From Escherichia coli (GTDB lineage Bacteria > Pseudomonadota > Gammaproteobacteria > Enterobacterales > Enterobacteriaceae): a stretch of 64,000 bases of DNA. The position numbers and the translations under genes were made by a program. Where the stretch lies: assembly GCF_044647545.1 (NCBI RefSeq), contig NZ_CP172818.1; one strand, given 5' to 3'. Below, one piece after another: positions 3,808 to 43,621 of the stretch. The notes under the pieces are model-generated. The model ran no database searches. It had not been told where the DNA came from and saw only the letters and a list, made by a program, of their open reading frames with translations. Each line of letters opens with the position of its first letter. Positions within the stretch are counted from its first letter, which is position 1.

Positions 3808-5622
3808 ATGTTAAATGCATGGCATCTGCCGGTGCCCCCATTTGTTAAACAAAGCAAAGATCAACTGCTCATTACGCTGTGGCTGACGGGCGAAGACCCA
3901 CCGCAGCGCATTATGCTGCGTACAGAACACGACAACGAAGAAACGTCAGTAGCGATGCATAAGCAGCGCAGTCAGCCGCAGCCTGGCGTTACCGCATGGC
4001 GGGCGGCGATCGATCTCTCCAGCGGGCAACCTCGGCGGCGTTATAGTTTCAAATTACTGTGGCACGATCGCCAGCGTTGGTTTACACCGCAGGGCTTCAG
4101 CCGAATGCCGCCAGCACGACTGGAGCAGTTTGCTGTCGATGTCCCGGATATCGGCCCACAATGGGCTGCGGATCAGATTTTTTATCAGATCTTCCCTGAT
4201 CGTTTCGCCCGTAGTCTTCCTCGTGAAGCTGAACAGGATCATGTTTATTACCATCACGCAGCCGGACAAGAGATCATATTGCGTGACTGGGATGAACCGG
4301 TCACGGCGCAGGCGGGCGGATCAACGTTCTATGGCGGCGATCTGGACGGGATAAGCGAAAAACTGCCGTATCTGAAAAAACTTGGCGTGACGGCGCTGTA
4401 TCTCAATCCGGTGTTTAAAGCTCCCAGCGTACATAAATACGATACAGAGGATTATCGCCACGTCGATCCGCAGTTTGGCGGCGACGGAGCGTTGCTGCGT
4501 TTGCGACACCATACGCAGCAGCTGGGAATGCGGCTGGTGCTGGATGGCGTGTTTAACCACAGTGGCGATTCCCATGCCTGGTTTGACAGGCACAATCGTG
4601 GCACGGGTGGTGCTTGTCACAACCCCGAATCGCCCTGGCGCGACTGGTACTCGTTTAGTGACGATGGCACGGCGCTCGACTGGCTGGGCTATGCCAGCTT
4701 GCCGAAACTGGATTATCAGTCGGAAAGTCTGGTGAATGAAATTTATCGCGGGGAAGACAGTATTGTCCGCCACTGGCTGAAAGCGCCGTGGAATATGGAC
4801 GGCTGGCGGCTGGATGTGGTGCATATGCTGGGGGAAGCGGGTGGGGCGCGCAATAATTTGCAGCACGTTGCCGGGATCACCGAAGCGGCGAAAGAAACCC
4901 AGCCGGAAGCGTATATCGTTGGAGAGCATTTTGGCGATGCACGGCAATGGTTACAGGCCGATGTGGAAGATGCCGCCATGAACTATCGTGGCTTCACATT
5001 CCCGTTGTGGGGATTTCTTGCCAATACCGACATCTCTTATGATCCGCAGCAAATTGACGCCCAAACCTGTATGGCCTGGATGGATAATTACCGCGCCGGA
5101 CTTTCTCATCAACAGCAACTGCGTATGTTTAATCAGCTCGATAGCCACGATACTGCGCGATTTAAAACGCTGCTCGGTCGGGATATTGCGCGCCTGCCGC
5201 TGGCGGTGGTCTGGTTGTTCACCTGGCCTGGTGTACCGTGCATTTATTACGGTGATGAAGTGGGACTGGATGGTAAAAACGATCCGTTTTGCCGTAAACC
5301 GTTCCCCTGGCAGGTGGAAAAGCAGGATACGGCGTTATTCGCGCTGTACCAGCGAATGATTGCGCTGCGTAAGAAAAGTCAGGCGCTGCGTCGTGGCGGC
5401 TGTCAGGTGCTGTATGCGGAAGATAACGTGGTGGTATTTGGCCGCGTGCTGAATCAGCAGCGTGTACTGGTGGCAATCAACCGTGGAGAAGCCTGTGAAG
5501 TGGTGCTACCCGCGTCACCGTTGCTTAATGTTGCGCAATGGCAACGCAAAGAAGGCCATGGGCAACTGACAGACGGGATTCTGGCTTTGCCTGCCATTTC
5601 GGCTACGGTGTGGATCAACTAA
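3808..5622 (+). CDS. malZ: Maltodextrin glucosidase (GH13)
   Basis: ORF 3805..5622 begins [10 protein letters not shown]; second ATG taken as start (604 aa); GH13 motifs [15 protein letters not shown]; C-terminus intact, TAA at 5620-5622. Confidence 0.93.
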
Positions 5623-5659
5623 CTGTTTTATTTATTACGTCGTATCACCACCCTACACT

Positions 5660-6734
<1,075 letters not shown>

Positions 6735-6735
<1 letters not shown>

Positions 6736-7361
6736 CAGTTGCGCATCCCAGAGGATAAGAAGGAAGAAGATAAAAGTGGGAGAAGCGCCTTGCGTGACGC
6801 CTGCGCCATCATCCGCGGATAAAACTGCCAGAAGCGGGTTTCGAGGGCGGCATAATGTGCGTTTAAATCGTACCAGGAGTCACGCAGGGCATCCAGACGT
6901 GGGCGACGGCTTGCCATGCCGTTTAACACGTTCTGGATGAAATCCATATCGCGATAGCGCACCAGCCACTGCTCTGACCACAAGTAATTGTTCAGATTGA
7001 TAAAACGTGGCGGTGAGTCCGGCAAAATCGTCATCACTTGCTCGCGGGCATAACAGACAAATTCCTGTAGCGGAAAGTCCGGCGACAGCTGCGACCAGTG
7101 GCGGGAAAGAAAGTGATCCCACATGACATCCAGCGTAATAGGCGCAACGCGGCGCGTTTCACTACGAAACCATTCCCGTGCTTCGCGGACTTCCGGCAGA
7201 TTGTCGGTTAGTACATCAATGCGCCGATGCATATGAATGCCAGCCACGACGTCGGGCGGAAAACTTTCTTCAGGATTTCCGCGTACGAAATCAGCCAGTA
7301 AATTGCCGGAAAGCGAGCTTTCCGCGAGATGGGCTAAATGCAGGTGAGCTAAAAAATTCAT
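6735..7361 (-). CDS. acpH: Acyl carrier protein phosphodiesterase; ORF here is 208 aa, about 15 aa longer at the C-terminus than the 193 aa I recall
   Basis: N-terminus [32 protein letters not shown]; ORF continues past ...ASRKAL as [15 protein letters not shown] to TGA at 6735-6737, running into the AT-rich block. Confidence 0.85.
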
Positions 7362-7453
7362 CGATTATATTCTATCCAAAGGGGGGTAAAGGTTGCAGGG
7401 AGAGCGCCCCGGCACTAGACTACCCGCCTCTTATTTTAGTCTGAGTCAGTGTC

Positions 7454-8524
7454 ATGCGCGTTACCGATTTCTCCTTTGAATTGCCCGAATCCCTGATTGC
7501 CCACTATCCCATGCCTGAACGCAGTAGCTGTCGTTTACTGTCGCTGGACGGGCCGACGGGCGCGCTGACGCACGGTACTTTCACCGATTTACTCGATAAG
7601 CTCAACCCCGGCGATCTTCTGGTTTTTAATAATACCCGCGTGATCCCGGCGCGTCTGTTTGGGCGTAAAGCCAGCGGCGGCAAGATTGAAGTGCTGGTTG
7701 AGCGGATGCTCGACGACAAACGCATTCTTGCGCATATTCGCGCCTCGAAAGCGCCAAAACCTGGCGCAGAACTGTTGCTGGGCGATGACGAAAGTATTAA
7801 CGCAACAATGACCGCGCGCCACGGCGCACTGTTTGAAGTCGAATTTAATGATGATCGTTCGGTACTGGATATCCTCAACAGCATCGGCCATATGCCGCTG
7901 CCGCCGTATATCGACCGTCCGGACGAAGACGCTGACCGCGAACTTTATCAAACCGTTTATAGCGAAAAACCGGGCGCGGTTGCAGCCCCGACCGCTGGTC
8001 TGCATTTTGACGAACCTTTGCTGGAAAAATTACGCGCCAAAGGCGTGGAGATGGCGTTTGTCACCCTGCACGTTGGTGCGGGCACCTTCCAGCCGGTGCG
8101 CGTCGACACCATTGAAGATCACATCATGCACTCGGAATACGCTGAAGTACCGCAGGATGTGGTAGACGCGGTACTGGCGGCGAAAGCGCGCGGTAACCGG
8201 GTGATTGCGGTTGGCACCACCTCGGTACGTTCGCTGGAAAGCGCGGCCCAGGCGGCGAAAAACGATCTCATCGAACCGTTCTTTGACGATACCCAAATCT
8301 TTATCTATCCCGGCTTCCAGTACAAAGTGGTCGATGCGCTGGTGACGAACTTCCACCTTCCTGAATCGACGCTGATTATGCTGGTTTCGGCATTTGCCGG
8401 CTATCAACACACTATGAACGCCTATAAAGCGGCGGTAGAAGAGAAATATCGCTTTTTTAGTTACGGTGATGCGATGTTTATCACGTACAATCCGCAGGCA
8501 ATTAATGAGCGCGTCGGGGAGTAA
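7454..8524 (+). CDS. queA: S-adenosylmethionine:tRNA ribosyltransferase-isomerase
   Basis: 356 aa, [29 protein letters not shown]; upstream of tgt as in the queA-tgt-yajC-secDF operon. Confidence 0.96.
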
Positions 8525-13427: not shown

Positions 13428-14312
13428 TCAGAAGTTGTAACCTACTACCAGGTAACCACCCCAGCCGGTAGAGCGAACGTTGAAGTTGCCGTTGCCGAAG
13501 TTCAGTTCTGCATCGTCGTTCCACTGACCACCGTCGTGCCAGTAACGAGCTACGACAGAGTAGTGCCAATGATCGTAGTTCAGAGCCAGAATATGGCTGG
13601 AAGCGATAGAGTTATTAGTACGGGTCTTAATACCGTTGATTGCGTTACCGCTGTCATCCCCTAAATCGGAACCCCAGTCGAAGTTGGTGAAGCCGATGTA
13701 GCTCAGCTGACCGCCCCACAGATCGGTAATCGGCACAAAGTATTTAATTTTGAAACGGTAACCGTCCCACTCGTTTTCGTTCGCTGCGCCATAGTTCTGC
13801 CACTGGTATTTCGCATAGACGTTCATGGACAGGCTCATCGGCAGGCCAGTATCGATATCGGTACCCAGACCCATGTACCAGGTGCTCTGGCGACCATCTT
13901 TATTACGACCCATGTCGTAAATGTAGTTGTTCGCGAAGTACCACTCTTTGAACGGACCAAAGCTAAGGTCAGTATTGGTCAGCTTGTCGATGGAGAAACG
14001 TGGTTCGATTTCCATAAACAGCGGAGAACCGTGGTTCCAGATACCTTTTGCATCGGAGTTACCGCCGAAGAATACCGGCGCATCCGCATAACCATAGAAG
14101 TCGAACCAGTCTTTTTTAGCGAATGCTTCGTACTCAAGGTAGGTATCGTTGCGGATCTGCGGTCCGAAACGGGTGTGATAGCTTCCGACAACGTTAACGC
14201 TCTGGTGCCACCAGTCGGAAAGATACTGCGGTTTGTCGTTTTCAGCTGCGTTGACAGTAAAAGACGAAGAGAGCGCCAGTACCGCACCGGCTGCCAGTAA
14301 TGTTTTTTTCAT
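13428..14312 (-). CDS. tsx: Nucleoside-specific outer membrane channel Tsx
   Basis: ORF 13428..14360 trimmed to [22 protein letters not shown] signal peptide (294 aa); beta-barrel ending ...GYLVVGYNF. Confidence 0.94.
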
Positions 14313-14609
14313 ATGTATGCCACTGTTTGAAAATCCCTTGCGGGAGTGAAAAAGGCGCAAATTGCGTTTCTAAATATTTCGTATACAGAGGAGCCTATTA
14401 TAAAAATCATTGCTCACAAAAATATGTTTCGTTTCACAGTTCTATCATTTACGTAATCGATTGCGTTCACGTTTACACACATTCGGGCAGGGATTGTACT
14501 GACTTTCACCCTTGTTGCAAACTTTTACTATCAATCCAGGTGATGTAAGCGGAGTAACAAAATGACGGGGAAGATGTTGCGGGACGCACAATATCGCCCC
14601 GCAATACGT

Positions 14610-15149
14610 TTACTGCATAACAGGTTGAATGTCGTGGATACGTACAAAGCCTAACTGATCCACAGACATACCCTTTAACTGTAACGGAATATCAACATCG
14701 CTGGGGGCGAGGACGCTGGCAGGTGCGTTAATCAATTGATTCTGCACATTGATTTCCTGAAAGTTGTCTATTGTTCCCTGAATTTGCCCATATTCAACAG
14801 TTCCGCTGAATGCGGGCAAGGGATCATTCGACTCGCCCTGAATACGTAGCGTCAGGGTGGTGCCATCTGTATCAGGCGTAATATTCACCAGCGACATACG
14901 TAAAGTACCGATCTGGCTTTCCAGTCTTGCTGGTGTTTTTGCTCCAGGCAGAAGGTAAACCCCACTGCTGGATTTTGCATTCAGCCTGTTTTGCTGAGTG
15001 ATTTTGACCGTTTCTTTATTGAGTTGCGTCATCTCCTGGTTCAGCGTGCTGACGCTGTGTTTCATCTGTCGCACTTCGCTTTGCTGCACACAGGCGCTAA
15101 GGCTGAACAGGCTTCCCAGCAGGAGCAGTCGAAAAACGTTAGTATTCAT
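14610..15149 (-). CDS. yajI: Lipoprotein YajI
   Basis: ORF 14610..15209 trimmed to MNTNVFRLLLLGSLFSLSAC (lipobox LSAC), 179 aa. Confidence 0.88.
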   Translation of the reverse strand: MNTNVFRLLLLGSLFSLSACVQQSEVRQMKHSVSTLNQEMTQLNKETVKITQQNRLNAKSSSGVYLLPGAKTPARLESQIGTLRMSLVNITPDTDGTTLTLRIQGESNDPLPAFSGTVEYGQIQGTIDNFQEINVQNQLINAPASVLAPSDVDIPLQLKGMSVDQLGFVRIHDIQPVMQ

Positions 15150-15263
15150 AGGTCGTCCCTTTCTCGTCGCAATTAGCCTAATGGTAGAGGGTAAAAGCAG
15201 CGAAAGCATCGATCCTTTATCTCAAAAGCGTTGCGCCTTTGTTGTATCGTCAGTTCAGGGTAA

Positions 15264-15749
<486 letters not shown>

Positions 15750-15752
15750 GCC

Positions 15753-16856
15753 GTGCAGGACGAGTATTACATGGCGCGGGCGCTAAAGCTGGCGCAACGA
15801 GGACGTTTTACCACCCACCCCAACCCGAATGTCGGGTGCGTCATTGTCAAAGATGGCGAAATTGTCGGTGAAGGTTACCACCAACGAGCGGGTGAACCAC
15901 ATGCCGAAGTACACGCATTGCGAATGGCGGGTGAAAAAGCCAAAGGTGCGACCGCCTATGTCACACTCGAACCCTGTAGCCATCATGGTCGTACGCCACC
16001 ATGCTGTGACGCACTCATCGCCGCTGGCGTAGCGCGCGTGGTTGCAGCGATGCAGGACCCCAATCCGCAGGTTGCTGGACGTGGACTTTACCGTCTGCAA
16101 CAGGCTGGCATTGACGTCAGCCACGGGCTGATGATGAGTGAAGCCGAGCAATTGAATAAAGGATTTCTCAAACGGATGCGCACCGGCTTTCCTTATATTC
16201 AATTAAAACTTGGCGCATCGCTTGATGGTCGCACGGCGATGGCGAGCGGCGAAAGCCAGTGGATCACTTCGCCTCAGGCGAGGCGCGACGTACAACGACT
16301 GCGCGCACAAAGTCATGCCATTTTAACCAGCAGCGCCACGGTGCTGGCGGATGATCCAGCCTTAACAGTGCGTTGGTCTGAACTGGATGAACAAACTCAG
16401 GCGCTCTATCCGCAACAAAATCTCCGTCAGCCGATACGTATTGTGATTGATAGCCAAAATCGCGTGACGCCGGAACATCGCATTGTGCAGCAGCCCGGCG
16501 AAACCTGGTTCGCGCGTACTCAGGATGATTCTCGTGAGTGGCCGGAAACGGTGCGTACCTTGCTGATTCCAGAGCATAAAGGTCATCTGGATCTGGTTGT
16601 ACTGATGATGCAACTGGGTAAACAGCAAATTAACAGCATCTGGGTGGAAGCGGGGCCAACGCTCGCTGGCGCATTGCTACAGGCGGGGTTAGTCGATGAG
16701 CTGATTGTCTATATCGCACCTAAACTATTAGGCAGCGACGCCCGTGGATTATGCTCGCTGCCAGGGCTTGAGAAATTAGCCGACGCCCCCCAATTTAAAT
16801 TCAAAGAGATACGTCATGTAGGCCCGGATGTTTGCCTGCATTTAGTGGGTGCATGA
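15753..16856 (+). CDS. ribD: Bifunctional riboflavin biosynthesis deaminase/reductase RibD
   Basis: 367 aa, GTG start; deaminase zinc motif HAEVHAL...[11 protein letters not shown]. Confidence 0.95.
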
Positions 16857-16944
16857 TCTCCCGGCTCGAAAGGGAAGCAGCGCACGAAATATTATGCTAA
16901 AATCCGCCCCCCTGCGGGGCCATACTCGAACCCGAAGGAAGAAA

Positions 16945-17415
16945 ATGAACATTATTGAAGCTAACGTTGCTACCCCGGACGCTCGCGTCGCCATCACCAT
17001 CGCGCGTTTCAACAACTTTATCAATGACAGCCTGCTGGAAGGTGCAATTGACGCACTGAAACGTATCGGTCAGGTAAAAGATGAAAACATTACCGTTGTT
17101 TGGGTGCCTGGTGCCTATGAGCTGCCGCTGGCGGCGGGTGCACTGGCTAAAACCGGTAAATACGACGCGGTGATTGCGCTGGGTACGGTTATTCGTGGTG
17201 GCACTGCCCACTTTGAATATGTCGCTGGTGGTGCAAGCAACGGCCTGGCGCATGTTGCCCAGGACAGCGAAATTCCGGTTGCTTTTGGGGTTCTGACCAC
17301 TGAAAGCATTGAACAAGCGATCGAACGTGCTGGCACCAAAGCTGGCAACAAAGGTGCAGAAGCTGCACTGACCGCGCTTGAAATGATTAATGTATTGAAA
17401 GCCATCAAGGCCTGA
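16945..17415 (+). CDS. ribH: 6,7-dimethyl-8-ribityllumazine synthase
   Basis: ORF 16849..17415 trimmed to ATG at 16945 (156 aa, [28 protein letters not shown]). Confidence 0.95.
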
Positions 17416-17434
17416 AATTAGTAAGGGGAAATCC

Positions 17435-17854
17435 GTGAAACCTGCTGCTCGTCGCCGCGCTCGTGAGTGTGCCGTCCAGGCGCTCTACTCCTGGCAGTTG
17501 TCCCAGAACGACATCGCTGATGTTGAATACCAGTTCCTGGCTGAACAGGATGTAAAAGACGTTGACGTCCTGTACTTCCGTGAGCTGCTGGCCGGGGTGG
17601 CGACTAACACCGCATACCTCGACGGACTGATGAAGCCATACCTGTCCCGCCTGCTGGAAGAACTGGGCCAGGTAGAAAAAGCAGTACTGCGCATTGCGCT
17701 GTACGAGCTGTCTAAACGTAGCGATGTGCCATACAAAGTGGCCATTAACGAAGCGATCGAACTGGCGAAATCGTTCGGCGCAGAAGACAGCCATAAGTTC
17801 GTCAACGGCGTACTCGATAAAGCAGCACCTGTGATTCGCCCTAACAAAAAGTGA
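17435..17854 (+). CDS. nusB: Transcription antitermination factor NusB
   Basis: 139 aa, GTG start, [26 protein letters not shown]. Confidence 0.96.
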
Positions 17855-17860
17855 TATCCA

Positions 17861-17912
17861 GGCCGGTAGATTCACGGAAGACCGTTCCGCGATCGCCGGC
17901 CTTTTCTTTTTT
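17861..17912 (+). terminator. GC-rich hairpin plus T-run between nusB and thiL (intra-operon attenuator-like structure)
   Basis: ggccgg...cggaa/ttccg...ccggcc nested stem followed by ttttctttttt. Confidence 0.5.
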
Positions 17913-17931
17913 ACCTGCTGAGGCATAACGT

Positions 17932-18909
17932 ATGGCATGTGGCGAGTTCTCCCTGATTGCCCGTTATTTTGACCGTGTAAGAAGTTCTCGTCTTGATGTC
18001 GAACTGGGCATTGGCGACGATTGCGCACTTCTCAATATCCCCGAGAAGCAGACCCTGGCGATCAGCACTGATACGCTGGTGGCGGGCAACCACTTCCTCC
18101 CTGATATCGATCCTGCTGATCTGGCATATAAAGCTCTGGCAGTGAATTTAAGCGATCTGGCCGCGATGGGGGCCGATCCGGCCTGGCTGACGCTGGCATT
18201 AACCTTACCGGACGTCGACGAAGCGTGGCTTGAGTCCTTCAGCGACAGTTTGTTTGATCTTCTCAATTATTACGATATGCAACTTATTGGCGGCGATACC
18301 ACGCGTGGGCCATTATCAATGACGTTGGGTATCCACGGCTTTGTTCCGATGGGACGAGCCTTAACGCGCTCTGGGGCGAAACCGGGTGACTGGATCTATG
18401 TGACCGGTACACCGGGCGATAGCGCCGCCGGGCTGGCGATTTTGCAAAATCGTTTGCAGGTTGCCGATGCTAAAGATGCGGACTACTTGATCAAACGTCA
18501 TCTCCGTCCGTCGCCGCGTATTTTACAGGGGCAGGCACTGCGCGATCTGGCAAATTCAGCTATCGATCTCTCTGACGGTCTGATTTCCGATCTCGGGCAT
18601 ATCGTGAAAGCCAGCGACTGCGGCGCACGTATTGACCTGGCATTGCTGCCGTTTTCTGATGCGCTTTCTCGCCATGTTGAACCTGAACAGGCGTTGCGCT
18701 GGGCGCTCTCTGGCGGTGAAGATTACGAGTTGTGTTTCACGGTGCCGGAACTGAACCGTGGCGCGCTGGATGTGGCTCTCGGACACCTGGGCGTACCGTT
18801 TACCTGTATCGGGCAAATGACCGCCGATATCGAAGGGCTTTGTTTTATTCGTGACGGCGAACCTGTCACGTTAGACTGGAAAGGATATGACCATTTTGCC
18901 ACGCCATAA
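17932..18909 (+). CDS. thiL: Thiamine-monophosphate kinase
   Basis: 325 aa, [22 protein letters not shown] synthase-related fold. Confidence 0.95.
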
Positions 18910-19405
18910 AGATGTCGCGAAAAGTCGCCTGAAGATGAGTAATCCGTGGCATCTGCTTGCTGTCGGATTCGGAAGTGGATTAAGCCCAATCGTTCCTGGC
19001 ACGATGGGATCGCTGGCGGCGATTCCGTTCTGGTATCTGATGACCTTTTTGCCCTGGCAGCTCTATTCGCTGGTGGTGATGCTGGGGATCTGTATCGGCG
19101 TCTATCTTTGTCATCAAACGGCGAAAGACATGGGCGTGCACGATCACGGCAGCATTGTCTGGGACGAATTTATTGGTATGTGGATCACGCTCATGGCGCT
19201 GCCGACCAATGACTGGCAGTGGGTCGCCGCCGGGTTTGTGATTTTCCGTATCCTGGATATGTGGAAACCGTGGCCGATCCGCTGGTTTGACCGCAATGTA
19301 CATGGCGGCATGGGGATCATGATAGATGATATTGTCGCCGGGGTGATTTCCGCAGGCATCCTGTACTTTATTGGACATCACTGGCCGCTGGGTATTCTGT
19401 CGTAG
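18887..19405 (+). CDS. pgpA: Phosphatidylglycerophosphatase A
   Basis: 172 aa membrane protein, [32 protein letters not shown]; 23-nt overlap with thiL. Confidence 0.94.
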
Positions 19406-19417
19406 TTGTGCACCGAT

Positions 19418-19450
19418 GCCTGATGTGACACTTGTCACGTCTCATCAGGC
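19418..19450. terminator. Bidirectional hairpin between convergent pgpA and yajO
   Basis: gcctgatg...catcaggc outer stem with inner palindrome gtgacacttgtcac. Confidence 0.6.
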
Positions 19451-19458
19451 CTGCATAC

Positions 19459-20433
19459 CTATTTAAATCCTACGACCGGATGCGGTTTATACGGCGTTTC
19501 CAGTTCAGCAATCTGTTCCGGCTTTAAAGTGATATCCACCGCGTTCAACAGCTCATCAAGCTGTTCCTCCCGAGAAGTTCCGATAATCGGTGCGGCAATG
19601 CCCGGTTTACTCAACAACCAGGCCAGCGCAACTTGTGCTCGTGTTGCACCGAGTTCTTCACTGACGCCCGTTAACCGCTCTGCGATCTGCGCGTCATTTT
19701 CATCGCTTTCTTTATAGAGATTTTTACCCACCTCATCAGACACCAGTCGTGCGGTGGTTTCTCCCCAAGGACGCGTCAGGCGGCCCCGCGCCAGCGGGCT
19801 CCACGGAATGACCGCCACGCCTTCCTCATAACACAGCGGCAGCATCTCGCGCTCTTCTTCACGATAAATCAGATTGTAGTGATCCTGCATACTGACAAAC
19901 TGCGCCCAGCCGTGCTGTTTTTGTAGTTCCAGTGCTTGAGCAAACTGCGAAGCGTGCATGGATGACGCGCCGATATAACGCGCTTTCCCGGCTTTTACCA
20001 CGTCGTTGAGGGCTTCCAGCGTCTCTTCGATCGGCGTGTTGTAATCCCAGCGATGAATTTGCAGGATATCGACATAATCCATGCCGAGACGGCGCAGGCT
20101 GTCGTCGATAGAGCGCAAAATTTGTGCACGGGATAATCCTTCCGGTAAATCACCAACGCGATGGAACACTTTGGTCGCAACGACCACGTCTTCACGACGG
20201 GCGAAATCCCGCAGTGCGCGACCGACGATCTCTTCGCTGCTGCCATCGGAATAGCTATTGGCGGTATCAAAGAAATTTATGCCGCCTTCCAGCGCGCGTT
20301 TAATGATGGGACGGCTGCTTTCTTCCGGCAGTGTCCATGCGTGATTACCGCGATCTGGCTCGCCAAAGGTCATACAGCCGAGGCAAAGTCGGGAAACGCG
20401 AAGGTCGGTTTTTCCTAAGGGCTTGTATTGCAT
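19459..20433 (-). CDS. yajO: Aldo-keto reductase YajO
   Basis: ORF 19459..20595 trimmed to MQYKPLGKTDLRVSRLCLGCMTFG (324 aa). Confidence 0.92.
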   Translation of the reverse strand: MQYKPLGKTDLRVSRLCLGCMTFGEPDRGNHAWTLPEESSRPIIKRALEGGINFFDTANSYSDGSSEEIVGRALRDFARREDVVVATKVFHRVGDLPEGLSRAQILRSIDDSLRRLGMDYVDILQIHRWDYNTPIEETLEALNDVVKAGKARYIGASSMHASQFAQALELQKQHGWAQFVSMQDHYNLIYREEEREMLPLCYEEGVAVIPWSPLARGRLTRPWGETTARLVSDEVGKNLYKESDENDAQIAERLTGVSEELGATRAQVALAWLLSKPGIAAPIIGTSREEQLDELLNAVDITLKPEQIAELETPYKPHPVVGFK

Positions 20434-20485
20434 GCTGCCACTCCTCATGAATAATTTCTTAAGCATAGCAGGAGTGGAGTAGGGA

Positions 20486-22348
20486 TTATGCCAGCCAGGC
20501 CTTGATTTTGGCTTCCATACCGGCGGCATCGAGGCCGAGTTCGGCGCGCATTTCTTCCTGTGTTCCTTGTGGAATAAAGAAGTCCGGCAGACCAATGTTC
20601 AGCACGGGTACTGGTTTACGATGGGCCATCAGCACTTCGTTCACGCCGCTGCCTGCACCACCCATAATGGCGTTTTCTTCTACGGTAACCAGCGCTTCAT
20701 GGCTGGCGGCCATTTCCAGAATTAACGCTTCATCAAGCGGTTTCACGAAACGCATATCGACCAGCGTAGCGTTCAGCGATTCAGCGACTTTCGCCGCTTC
20801 TGGCATCAGCGTACCAAAGTTAAGGATCGCCAGTTTCTCACCACGACGCTTCACAATGCCTTTGCCAATTGGCAGTTTTTCCAGCGGCGTCAATTCCACG
20901 CCAACCGCGTTGCCGCGCGGGTAGCGCACCGCGGACGGGCCATCGTTATAGTGATAGCCGGTATAGAGCATCTGGCGACATTCGTTTTCATCGCTCGGGG
21001 TCATAATGACCATTTCCGGTATGCAGCGCAGGTAAGAGAGATCAAAAGCGCCCTGGTGGGTTTGACCGTCAGCACCAACAATGCCCGCGCGGTCGATGGC
21101 GAACAGGACCGGGAGTTTTTGAATCGCCACGTCATGCAACACCTGATCATAGGCACGTTGCAGGAAGGTGGAGTAAATTGCCACGATCGGTTTGTAGCCA
21201 CCAATCGCCAGACCGACGGCAAAGGTCACCGCGTGTTGCTCGGCAATCGCTACATCAAAATAGCGATCCGGGAATTTACGTGAAAACTCGACCATGCCGG
21301 AACCTTCACGCATCGCCGGAGTAATCGCCATCAGCTTGTTGTCTTTCGCTGCCGTTTCGCACAACCAGTCGCCAAAGATTTTTGAATAGCTCGGCAAACC
21401 GCCGCTACTTTTCGGCAAACAACCGCTGGAGGGATCAAATTTAGGCACGGCGTGGAAGGTGATTGGGTCTTTTTCTGCCGGTTCATAACCACGACCTTTT
21501 TTAGTCATGATATGCAGGAACTGCGGGCCTTTCAGGTCGCGCATGTTCTTAAGCGTGGTGATAAGCCCCAGCACATCGTGACCGTCCACCGGGCCGATGT
21601 AGTTAAAGCCCAGCTCTTCAAACAACGTGCCAGGCACTACCATGCCTTTAATATGTTCTTCGGTGCGTTTGAGCAGCTCTTTAATGGGGGGCACGCCAGA
21701 GAAAACTTTTTTCCCGCCTTCGCGCAGTGAAGAGTAAAGCTTACCGGAAAGCAGTTGCGCCAGATGGTTGTTGAGCGCGCCAACATTTTCGGAAATCGAC
21801 ATTTCATTGTCGTTGAGAACCACCAGCATATCAGGACGGATATCGCCCGCGTGATTCATCGCTTCAAACGCCATGCCAGCGGTAATCGCGCCATCGCCAA
21901 TGACACAGACGGTACGGCGATTTTTGCCTTCTTTCTCGGCAGCAACCGCAATACCAATTCCGGCACTGATGGAGGTTGATGAATGCCCGACGCTTAATAC
22001 GTCATATTCGCTTTCGCCGCGCCACGGGAACGGGTGCAGGCCGCCTTTCTGACGGATGGTGCCGATTTTGTCGCGGCGTCCGGTCAAAATTTTATGCGGA
22101 TAAGCCTGATGCCCCACATCCCAGATTAACTGGTCAAACGGGGTATTGTAGACATAGTGCAGCGCCACGGTCAGTTCGACCGTGCCCAGCCCGGAGGCGA
22201 AGTGCCCGCTGGAACGGCTCACGCTGTCGAGTAAATAGCGGCGCAGTTCGTCGCAGAGTTTCGGTAAACTCTCTTTCGGCAACAGTCGTAACTCCTGGGT
22301 GGAGTCGACCAGTGCCAGGGTCGGGTATTTGGCAATATCAAAACTCAT
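20486..22348 (-). CDS. dxs: 1-deoxy-D-xylulose-5-phosphate synthase
   Basis: 620 aa, [40 protein letters not shown]; TPP-binding [18 protein letters not shown]. Confidence 0.97.
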
Positions 22349-38635: not shown

Positions 38636-38668
38636 GGCCCGTCACCGCCAGGTGGTGGGCTTTTTTTT
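38636..38668 (+). terminator. Rho-independent terminator after tig
   Basis: ggcccgtcaccgccaggtggtgggc hairpin followed by T8. Confidence 0.8.
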
Positions 38669-38739
38669 GTCATGAATTTTGCATGGAACCGTGCGAAAAG
38701 CCTCTTTCGGTGTTAGCGTAACAACAAAAGATTGTTATG

Positions 38740-43413: not shown

Positions 43414-43445
43414 TGACCTCGCGCAAAATGCACTAATAAAAACAG

Positions 43446-43482
43446 GGCTGGCAGGCTAATTCGGACTTGCCAGCCTTTTTTT
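43446..43482 (+). terminator. Rho-independent terminator after lon
   Basis: ggctggca...tgccagcc hairpin followed by T7. Confidence 0.8.
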
Positions 43483-43621
43483 GTCTCGCTAAGTTAGATG
43501 GCGGATTGGGCTTGCCCTTATTAAGGGGTGTTGTAAGGGGATGGCTGGCCTGATATAACTGCTGCGCGTTCGTACCTTGAAGGATTCAAGTGCGATATAA
43601 ATTATAAAGAGGAAGAGAAGA

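Follow-up and report, generated by a model that had tools for sequence, protein, structure and literature searches.

Several operons of Escherichia coli contain partial intrinsic terminators, among them T1 between rpsU and dnaG and the attenuator between rplL and rpoB. Other partial terminators have been described between prs and dauA and between dapA and bamC, and read-through of at least 5% was found at 75% of the E. coli termination sites (Yan et al. 2018, PMC6131387). With read-through this common, a leaky terminator inside an operon is not surprising. A related case is made up of terminators located a few nucleotides past a translated stop codon. The lambda terminator tR2 is almost fully repressed when it lies 8-9 bp from the stop codon and reaches an efficiency of ~0.9 only beyond ~30 bp, a repression that is credited to the ribosome blocking the formation of the hairpin (Li et al. 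2016, PMC4824070); the pyrBI attenuator, cited in that work, is likewise read through when a ribosome blocks its hairpin. Finally, some transcripts terminated by Rho are trimmed, in which case a stable hairpin sets the 3' end and the Rho region lies just downstream (Dar and Sorek 2018, PMC6061677).

The hairpin studied here is located between nusB and thiL in a 64-kb stretch of E. coli DNA (hereafter the window, which designates the whole stretch analyzed). Its most probable interpretation, to which we give a probability of roughly 0.85, is a constitutive partial intrinsic (Rho-independent) terminator at the end of nusB, within the operon formed by nrdR, ribD, ribE, nusB, thiL and pgpA; as such, it belongs to an ordinary class of intrinsic terminators. 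Like rpsU-dnaG T1, rplL-rpoB, prs-dauA and dapA-bamC, it consists of a hairpin and a U tract that separate two genes read in the same direction within an operon, with lower expression downstream. Contrary to those partial terminators, it has an interrupted stem of unusual length (43 nt), located only 5 nt from the stop codon. This position recalls tR2 near its stop codon and the pyrBI attenuator (PMC4824070), both of which are also found a few nucleotides past a translated stop. Nevertheless, in those two systems the blocking of the hairpin by the ribosome is what causes read-through, whereas at nusB-thiL a role of the ribosome is suggested by the spacing; the nusB-thiL hairpin is also about twice as long as that of tR2, so that the ribosome may arrive at a different moment with respect to the completion of the hairpin. 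The locus further resembles the trimmed Rho-terminated transcripts (PMC6061677) in its stable hairpin at a 3' end with a Rho region just downstream but, unlike in those cases, a canonical and conserved U tract follows the stem, so the nusB-thiL hairpin may be able to terminate on its own. Until now, the only record of the site was a genome-wide table, in which it is an 'orphan' 3' end without a name; since it figures in a published K-12 3'-end catalogue, its existence was already known.

Locus and structure of the hairpin

The gene string nrdR-ribD-ribE(ribH)-nusB-thiL-pgpA is present in the window and is collinear with K-12: from nrdR to pgpA, every gene start is displaced by the same 13,297 relative to the annotated locus of K-12 (L001). 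K-12 genome coordinates were converted to window coordinates by subtracting 417,702. The 1-kb stretch around the hairpin matches several complete E. coli genomes at 100% identity and most of 5,424 others at 95-99%, and the RefSeq annotation of the 100%-identical genomes gives the same gene order (ribH/ribE, nusB, thiL). Collinearity and annotation thus bear out the gene string that a preliminary description of this DNA had proposed from the sequence. The nusB coding sequence (17435-17854, + strand, 139 aa, stop codon TGA at 17852-17854) was delimited from the list of open reading frames, its collinearity with K-12 b0416 and the annotation of the identical genomes. It is followed by a 5-nt spacer (17855-17859, + strand), a compound hairpin of 43 nt (17860-17902, A17860-U17902, + strand), supported by folding, covariation and the occurrence of a hairpin in every species, and a U tract UUUUCUUUUUU (17902-17912, + strand). 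The preliminary description had noticed a GC-rich compound hairpin followed by a T tract just after nusB and placed it at 17861-17912, which is right within one base. It had also put the start of thiL about 20 nt further on, and the thiL ATG, at 17932, indeed lies 19 nt past the T tract.

The thiL coding sequence (17932-18909, + strand) is assigned from the open reading frames, K-12 collinearity and the K-12 transcription units b0413-b0417/18 and b0415-b0417/18, according to which it is expressed via read-through of the terminator. Its Shine-Dalgarno sequence GAGG (17920-17923, + strand) is invariant in 41 Enterobacteriaceae (alignment A1). The whole thiL leader, CTGCTGAGGCATAACGTATG (17913-17934; alignment A1 columns 64-86), is nearly invariant across ~40 Enterobacteriaceae genera and even more so than the terminator stem; the Shine-Dalgarno sequence accounts for only part of this invariance. 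The pgpA coding sequence (18887-19405, + strand; open reading frames, K-12 collinearity and SMRT-Cappable-seq) overlaps thiL by 23 nt and has its own transcription start site (TSS) at K-12 436580, equivalent to 18878, which is inside thiL and 9 nt ahead of the pgpA ATG at 18887.

The outer stem of the hairpin, AGGCCGGU/GCCGGCCU, comprises 8 pairs (17860-17867 with 17895-17902). It is prolonged by 4 middle pairs broken by single unpaired bases (17869-17871 with 17892-17894 and 17873 with 17891) and by an inner stem, CGGAA/UUCCG (17875-17879 with 17885-17889), that carries the loop GACCG (17880-17884) at its tip. The E. coli helix, interrupted by interior loops, amounts to 17 bp; that of Enterobacter can reach 20 bp. 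The tract TTTTCTTTTTT (17902-17912) directly abuts the stem. The folding energy of the hairpin is -24.9 kcal/mol, as compared with -12.8 +/- 2.6 for 200 dinucleotide shuffles (z = -4.7), none of which folds as well, and the folding-energy check proposed in the preliminary description therefore returned a strong stem. On the opposite strand, the hairpin is followed by GGATATCAC and there is no T tract, which makes the terminator signal unidirectional.

A simple terminator scan, which accepts only uninterrupted stems and loops of 3-8 nt, missed this site because its stem holds interior loops. A custom scan of both strands of the full 64-kb window for T-rich 11-mers after a closed hairpin ranked it first of 28 candidates (-24.3 kcal/mol), an energy attained in 0 of 30 dinucleotide shuffles of the window. 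Five sites in the window reach -15 kcal/mol or lower, versus a mean of ~0.4 in the shuffles. Further strong hairpin/T-tract sites on the + strand are found at 2221-2256 (-21.7 kcal/mol), 43445-43486 (-20.3 kcal/mol) and 38636-38671 (-17.5 kcal/mol), 20-33 nt beyond the ends of + strand open reading frames, and are probably ordinary gene-end terminators. The same window contains an AT-rich region (~5600-8000; GC 0.38 in 6001-8000 versus ~0.51 elsewhere), in which long runs of A/T and a palindrome, A14...T14 at 6441-6478, are found; this patch may be horizontally acquired DNA.

The neighborhood of the hairpin could evoke regulation, as the downstream gene encodes a thiamine enzyme and the upstream gene an antitermination factor, and read-through is condition-dependent at other E. 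coli terminators (Yan et al., PMC6131387). One could thus imagine an attenuator (riboswitch, leader peptide or protein) that tunes thiL to the thiamine status, or a boxA-based autoregulation by NusB. Yet the stop codon and the stem are separated by only 5 nt, and no competing or antiterminator fold was found when the hairpin was folded in a 161-nt context, where it was kept in both the minimum free energy and the centroid structures. No Rfam family matched the 14000-21000 region, even at E <= 1, and the + strand between 14300 and 17932 contains no match to boxA (TGCTCTTTAACAA-like) with up to 3 mismatches. A riboswitch or another known regulatory RNA was consequently rejected, there being neither an Rfam match nor an aptamer or antiterminator fold, as was a Nus-factor boxA autoregulatory site, given the lack of boxA on the operon strand. 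Regulated attenuation as a whole is highly improbable, and the preliminary suggestion of attenuation, in the riboswitch or leader sense, finds no counterpart in the Rfam search or in the folding.

Conservation in E. coli and other Enterobacterales

Of 5,426 complete E. coli genomes, 5,424 contain the 61-nt element, each of them exactly once. A repeated palindrome of the REP/BIME type was ruled out, as it would need many copies and there is a single one per E. coli genome. The terminator is polymorphic within the species (loci L082 31-92 and L083 31-92). In the K-12 copy, which has a folding energy of -23.0 kcal/mol, 2 nt of the inner stem are changed (CCGCGATC to CCATGATC). In one E. coli lineage the inner stem is largely replaced and pairing is kept (-24.2 kcal/mol); in another one, which carries the K-12-type inner stem, a G-to-A change in the outer stem weakens the hairpin from -23.0 to -18.5 kcal/mol.

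Scanning one genome per species yielded 80 further Enterobacterales loci, and a GC-rich hairpin with a T-rich tail was found directly 3' of nusB in all 80 of these other species. Two forms can be distinguished. The simple form (38 sequences, including Pantoea, Erwinia, Tatumella, Hafnia, Edwardsiella and others) has 6-11 pairs in almost all cases, a short loop and a median energy of -14.2 kcal/mol. The extended form (44 sequences) spans 30-48 nt, has 12-20 pairs and a median energy of -27.7 kcal/mol, and is found in Escherichia, Salmonella, Citrobacter, Klebsiella, Enterobacter, Kosakonia, Kluyvera and relatives. All these sequences have a homologous outer stem, in which covariation is seen (GGCCGG/CCGGCC, AGCCGG/CCGGCU, AACCGG/CCGGUU, GGCCGUCAG/CUGGCGGCC). 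When pairs were explicitly counted on 41 aligned extended forms, double-sided changes were seen in 6 of the 8 outer-stem pairs, the covariation score was reached by none of 500 shuffles, and 87.8% of the outer-stem cells were paired, versus 31.8-57.5% if the partner was shifted by 1-3 columns. The inner stems, on the other hand, are wholly different between genera and even within E. coli, and each of them still folds. Since these inner stems are not alignable, RNAalifold gave no consensus on the 41-sequence alignment. The U tract is also widespread: in 73 of 82 sequences, T occupies 6 or more of the 8 positions that follow the GC stem. The conservation of the hairpin in the 9 remaining species (9/82), the U tract of which is poor, hints at an additional role, such as the protection of the 3' end.

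The distribution of both forms bears on another reading, according to which the long interrupted helix (17-20 bp) would be a processing site for RNase III or another enzyme, where nusB is cut from the thiL-pgpA mRNA, the resulting pieces then decaying at different rates. RNase III needs a helix of ~20 bp, and the length of the extended stem approaches that need; in this respect, the extension of the stem to 15-20 bp in 44 Enterobacteriaceae sequences, versus 6-11 bp in most other genera, would be in its favor. Nevertheless, the short stems that Erwiniaceae and other families have at the same place cannot be RNase III substrates, which makes such processing unlikely as the ancestral role, and the mapped RNA end (see below) falls in the U tract and not in the stem. 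We consider processing of this kind to be very unlikely.

Distance to the nusB stop codon

In 76 of 82 Enterobacterales sequences, 3-9 nt separate the nusB stop codon from the stem; the median distance is 5 nt, which is also the E. coli value. By comparison, the 8 other hairpin/T-tract sites found at the ends of + strand open reading frames in the window are located 19-57 nt from the stop codons. With a spacer of only 5 nt, a ribosome that terminates on nusB could reach over the 5' arm of the hairpin. Judging from this spacing and from the behavior of the shorter tR2, the terminator could be leaky in spite of its stability because the ribosome at the nusB stop codon blocks the hairpin.

RNA ends and transcripts in K-12

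Term-seq of K-12 revealed a dominant 3' end at position 435608 of the + strand (Adams et al. 2021, PMC7815308, Supplementary file 1). Its flanking sequence, ATCCAGGCCGG...GCCGGCCTTTTC|TTTTTTACCT, sets the end at the C of CCUUUUC (PMC7815308), which by coordinate transfer corresponds to position 17906 of the + strand of the window. The mapped end thus lies inside the U tract and not in the stem, in a copy that differs by 2 nt from the one studied here. It was labelled 'orphan' only because its distance to the nusB stop codon, 52 nt, exceeds the 50 nt up to which the authors call an end 'primary' (PMC7815308). The end was entered twice in the table (Supplementary file 1, PMC7815308), and these rows fit the LB OD 0.4 and M63 tabs, not that of LB OD 2.0, which suggests its detection in 2 of 3 growth conditions; this assignment is based on the published row counts of the three tabs. 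The 3'-end mapping that the preliminary description had called for was therefore available for K-12 and agrees with a near-canonical intrinsic terminator between co-directional genes, as the description had put it. Altogether, four of five features of an intrinsic terminator were found: a stable GC hairpin, an abutting U tract, an in vivo 3' end (in K-12) and the conservation of the structure.

The Term-seq data contain two other 3' ends in the operon. One is within pgpA, at 436722 (window 19020). The other, 434622 (window 16920), is in the ribD-ribE intergenic region (16896-16920), just past a small GC hairpin, CCGCCCCCCTGCGGGG, devoid of a U tract, and 8 nt downstream of the ribE TSS at 434614 (16912; extended -10 TGcTAAAAT). 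An end and a start nearly coincide there.

A Rho-dependent region peaks at K-12 435798, inside thiL and 190 nt downstream of 435608 (PMC7815308, Supplementary file 2), which is equivalent to position 18096 of the + strand. In the DirectRNA-seq data, the 800 nt before and after this peak hold respectively 244 and 61 reads in untreated cells and 185 and 106 reads with bicyclomycin, and the Rho score is 2.29 (p = 1e-5; PMC7815308); recomputing this score served to check the column order of the table. The downstream/upstream ratio hence goes from 0.25 in untreated cells to 0.57 with bicyclomycin. According to these counts, RNA drops ~4-fold from ribE-nusB to thiL and part of the drop requires Rho.

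Since the drop is sensitive to bicyclomycin, some of the 3' ends at the hairpin could belong to Rho-terminated RNAs that were trimmed back. In the strongest version of this scenario, the hairpin is mainly a protective 3' cap: Rho stops transcription in thiL, and the RNA is then shortened by 3'-to-5' exonucleases until they meet the hairpin. The Rho peak 190 nt downstream (K-12 435798), the rise of the coverage ratio from 0.25 to 0.57 under bicyclomycin and the 9 species that keep the hairpin with a poor U tract would all be accounted for. Yet a U tract abutting the stem is not needed for trimming and is nonetheless conserved in 73 of 82 sequences, the 3' end falls within this tract as in intrinsic terminators, and coverage still drops to 57% when Rho is inhibited by bicyclomycin. 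Protection is thus unlikely to be the main function of the hairpin, but Rho termination followed by trimming probably contributes alongside intrinsic termination.

Full-length primary transcripts that cross the terminator are also known. The SMRT-Cappable-seq units of K-12 include b0413-b0417 and b0413-b0418, from TSS 432976, b0415-b0417 and b0415-b0418, from TSS 434614, and pgpA alone, from TSS 436580; the same table gives nrdR...pgpA and ribE...pgpA as reference operons (Yan et al. 2018, PMC6131387). The two upstream start sites that feed the terminator are equivalent to window positions 15274 for the nrdR promoter (K-12 432976, + strand; SMRT-Cappable-seq) and 16912 for the ribE promoter (K-12 434614, + strand; SMRT-Cappable-seq and sequence). 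Four units therefore cross the terminator into thiL/pgpA, and the list contains neither a unit that starts at thiL nor one that ends at nusB (K-12, PMC6131387). An RNA going from the ribE promoter to the terminator would measure 995 nt, slightly less than the 1-kb size selection of SMRT-Cappable-seq; the 2.6-kb RNA from the nrdR promoter to the terminator should have been visible. The TERMITe supplements have no entry for the nusB-thiL terminator.

These transcripts speak to the possibility that the hairpin is a full stop and that thiL-pgpA is transcribed from a promoter of its own, for which the separate pgpA TSS at K-12 436580 could be invoked. However, the stretch from the T tract to the thiL ATG is too short to accommodate a promoter. 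Four of the K-12 units extend across the terminator without any unit starting at thiL, and nusB and thiL are also co-transcribed in Vibrio cholerae, where the junction was detected by RT-PCR (PMC5312566). A full stop is highly improbable under these circumstances. The preliminary description had also envisaged a thiL promoter downstream of the hairpin, which finds no support: the interval has only 19 nt and holds the GAGG motif, a promoter scan found no promoter-like site in 17400-17932, and the SMRT-Cappable-seq list has no unit that starts at thiL. Its proposal of partial termination, by contrast, is upheld by the K-12 3' end at 435608, the transcripts that cross it and a coverage of 25% after 435798. 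The absence of a thiL-initiated transcript and the existence of read-through units imply that thiL depends on read-through.

A scenario for partial termination

If the hairpin is a partial intrinsic terminator, RNA polymerases coming from the nrdR and ribE promoters would transcribe the 43-nt hairpin and then the U tract. A fraction of them would release the RNA in the U tract (~17906), giving nusB-terminal mRNAs with a stable 3' hairpin, and the remaining ones would read through and produce the sole thiL-bearing mRNA, pgpA being additionally served by its own promoter. The expected outcome would be a lower level of thiL-pgpA than of ribE-nusB. The spacing further suggests that, when translation keeps pace with transcription, a ribosome near the nusB stop codon may cover the 5' arm and block the hairpin. 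In that case, a polymerase with a ribosome close behind would pass the terminator, an uncoupled one would stop, and Rho acting within thiL could further thin the read-through transcripts.

A more elaborate version of this scenario, which we regard as possible and put forward only tentatively, is that the terminator works as a valve gated by translation. The transcription of thiL-pgpA would then be set by the closeness of ribosome and polymerase on nusB, the lengthening of the stem in Enterobacteriaceae from ~20 to ~43 nt would tune the time window for the arrival of the ribosome, and uncoupled transcripts would be filtered once more by Rho in thiL.

Conclusions

The additions of this work are modest. 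The terminator, with its covarying stem, is conserved across the sampled Enterobacterales (Enterobacteriaceae, Erwiniaceae, Hafnia and Edwardsiella), the stem was lengthened in Enterobacteriaceae, with an inner sequence that changes fast and is yet always paired, and the spacing to the nusB stop codon is very short and tightly conserved. The conserved spacing and the lineage-specific extension of the stem are small, testable additions that leave the current view of termination unchanged. For annotation and engineering, the lesson is that folding energy alone overrates terminators located a few nucleotides past a stop codon. As for the organism itself, thiL expression would hinge on the read-through of a terminator that is strong on paper, and a partial terminator at this place would explain how a single operon can provide different levels of the abundant factor NusB and of ThiL and PgpA, two enzymes in low demand, without a separate thiL promoter.
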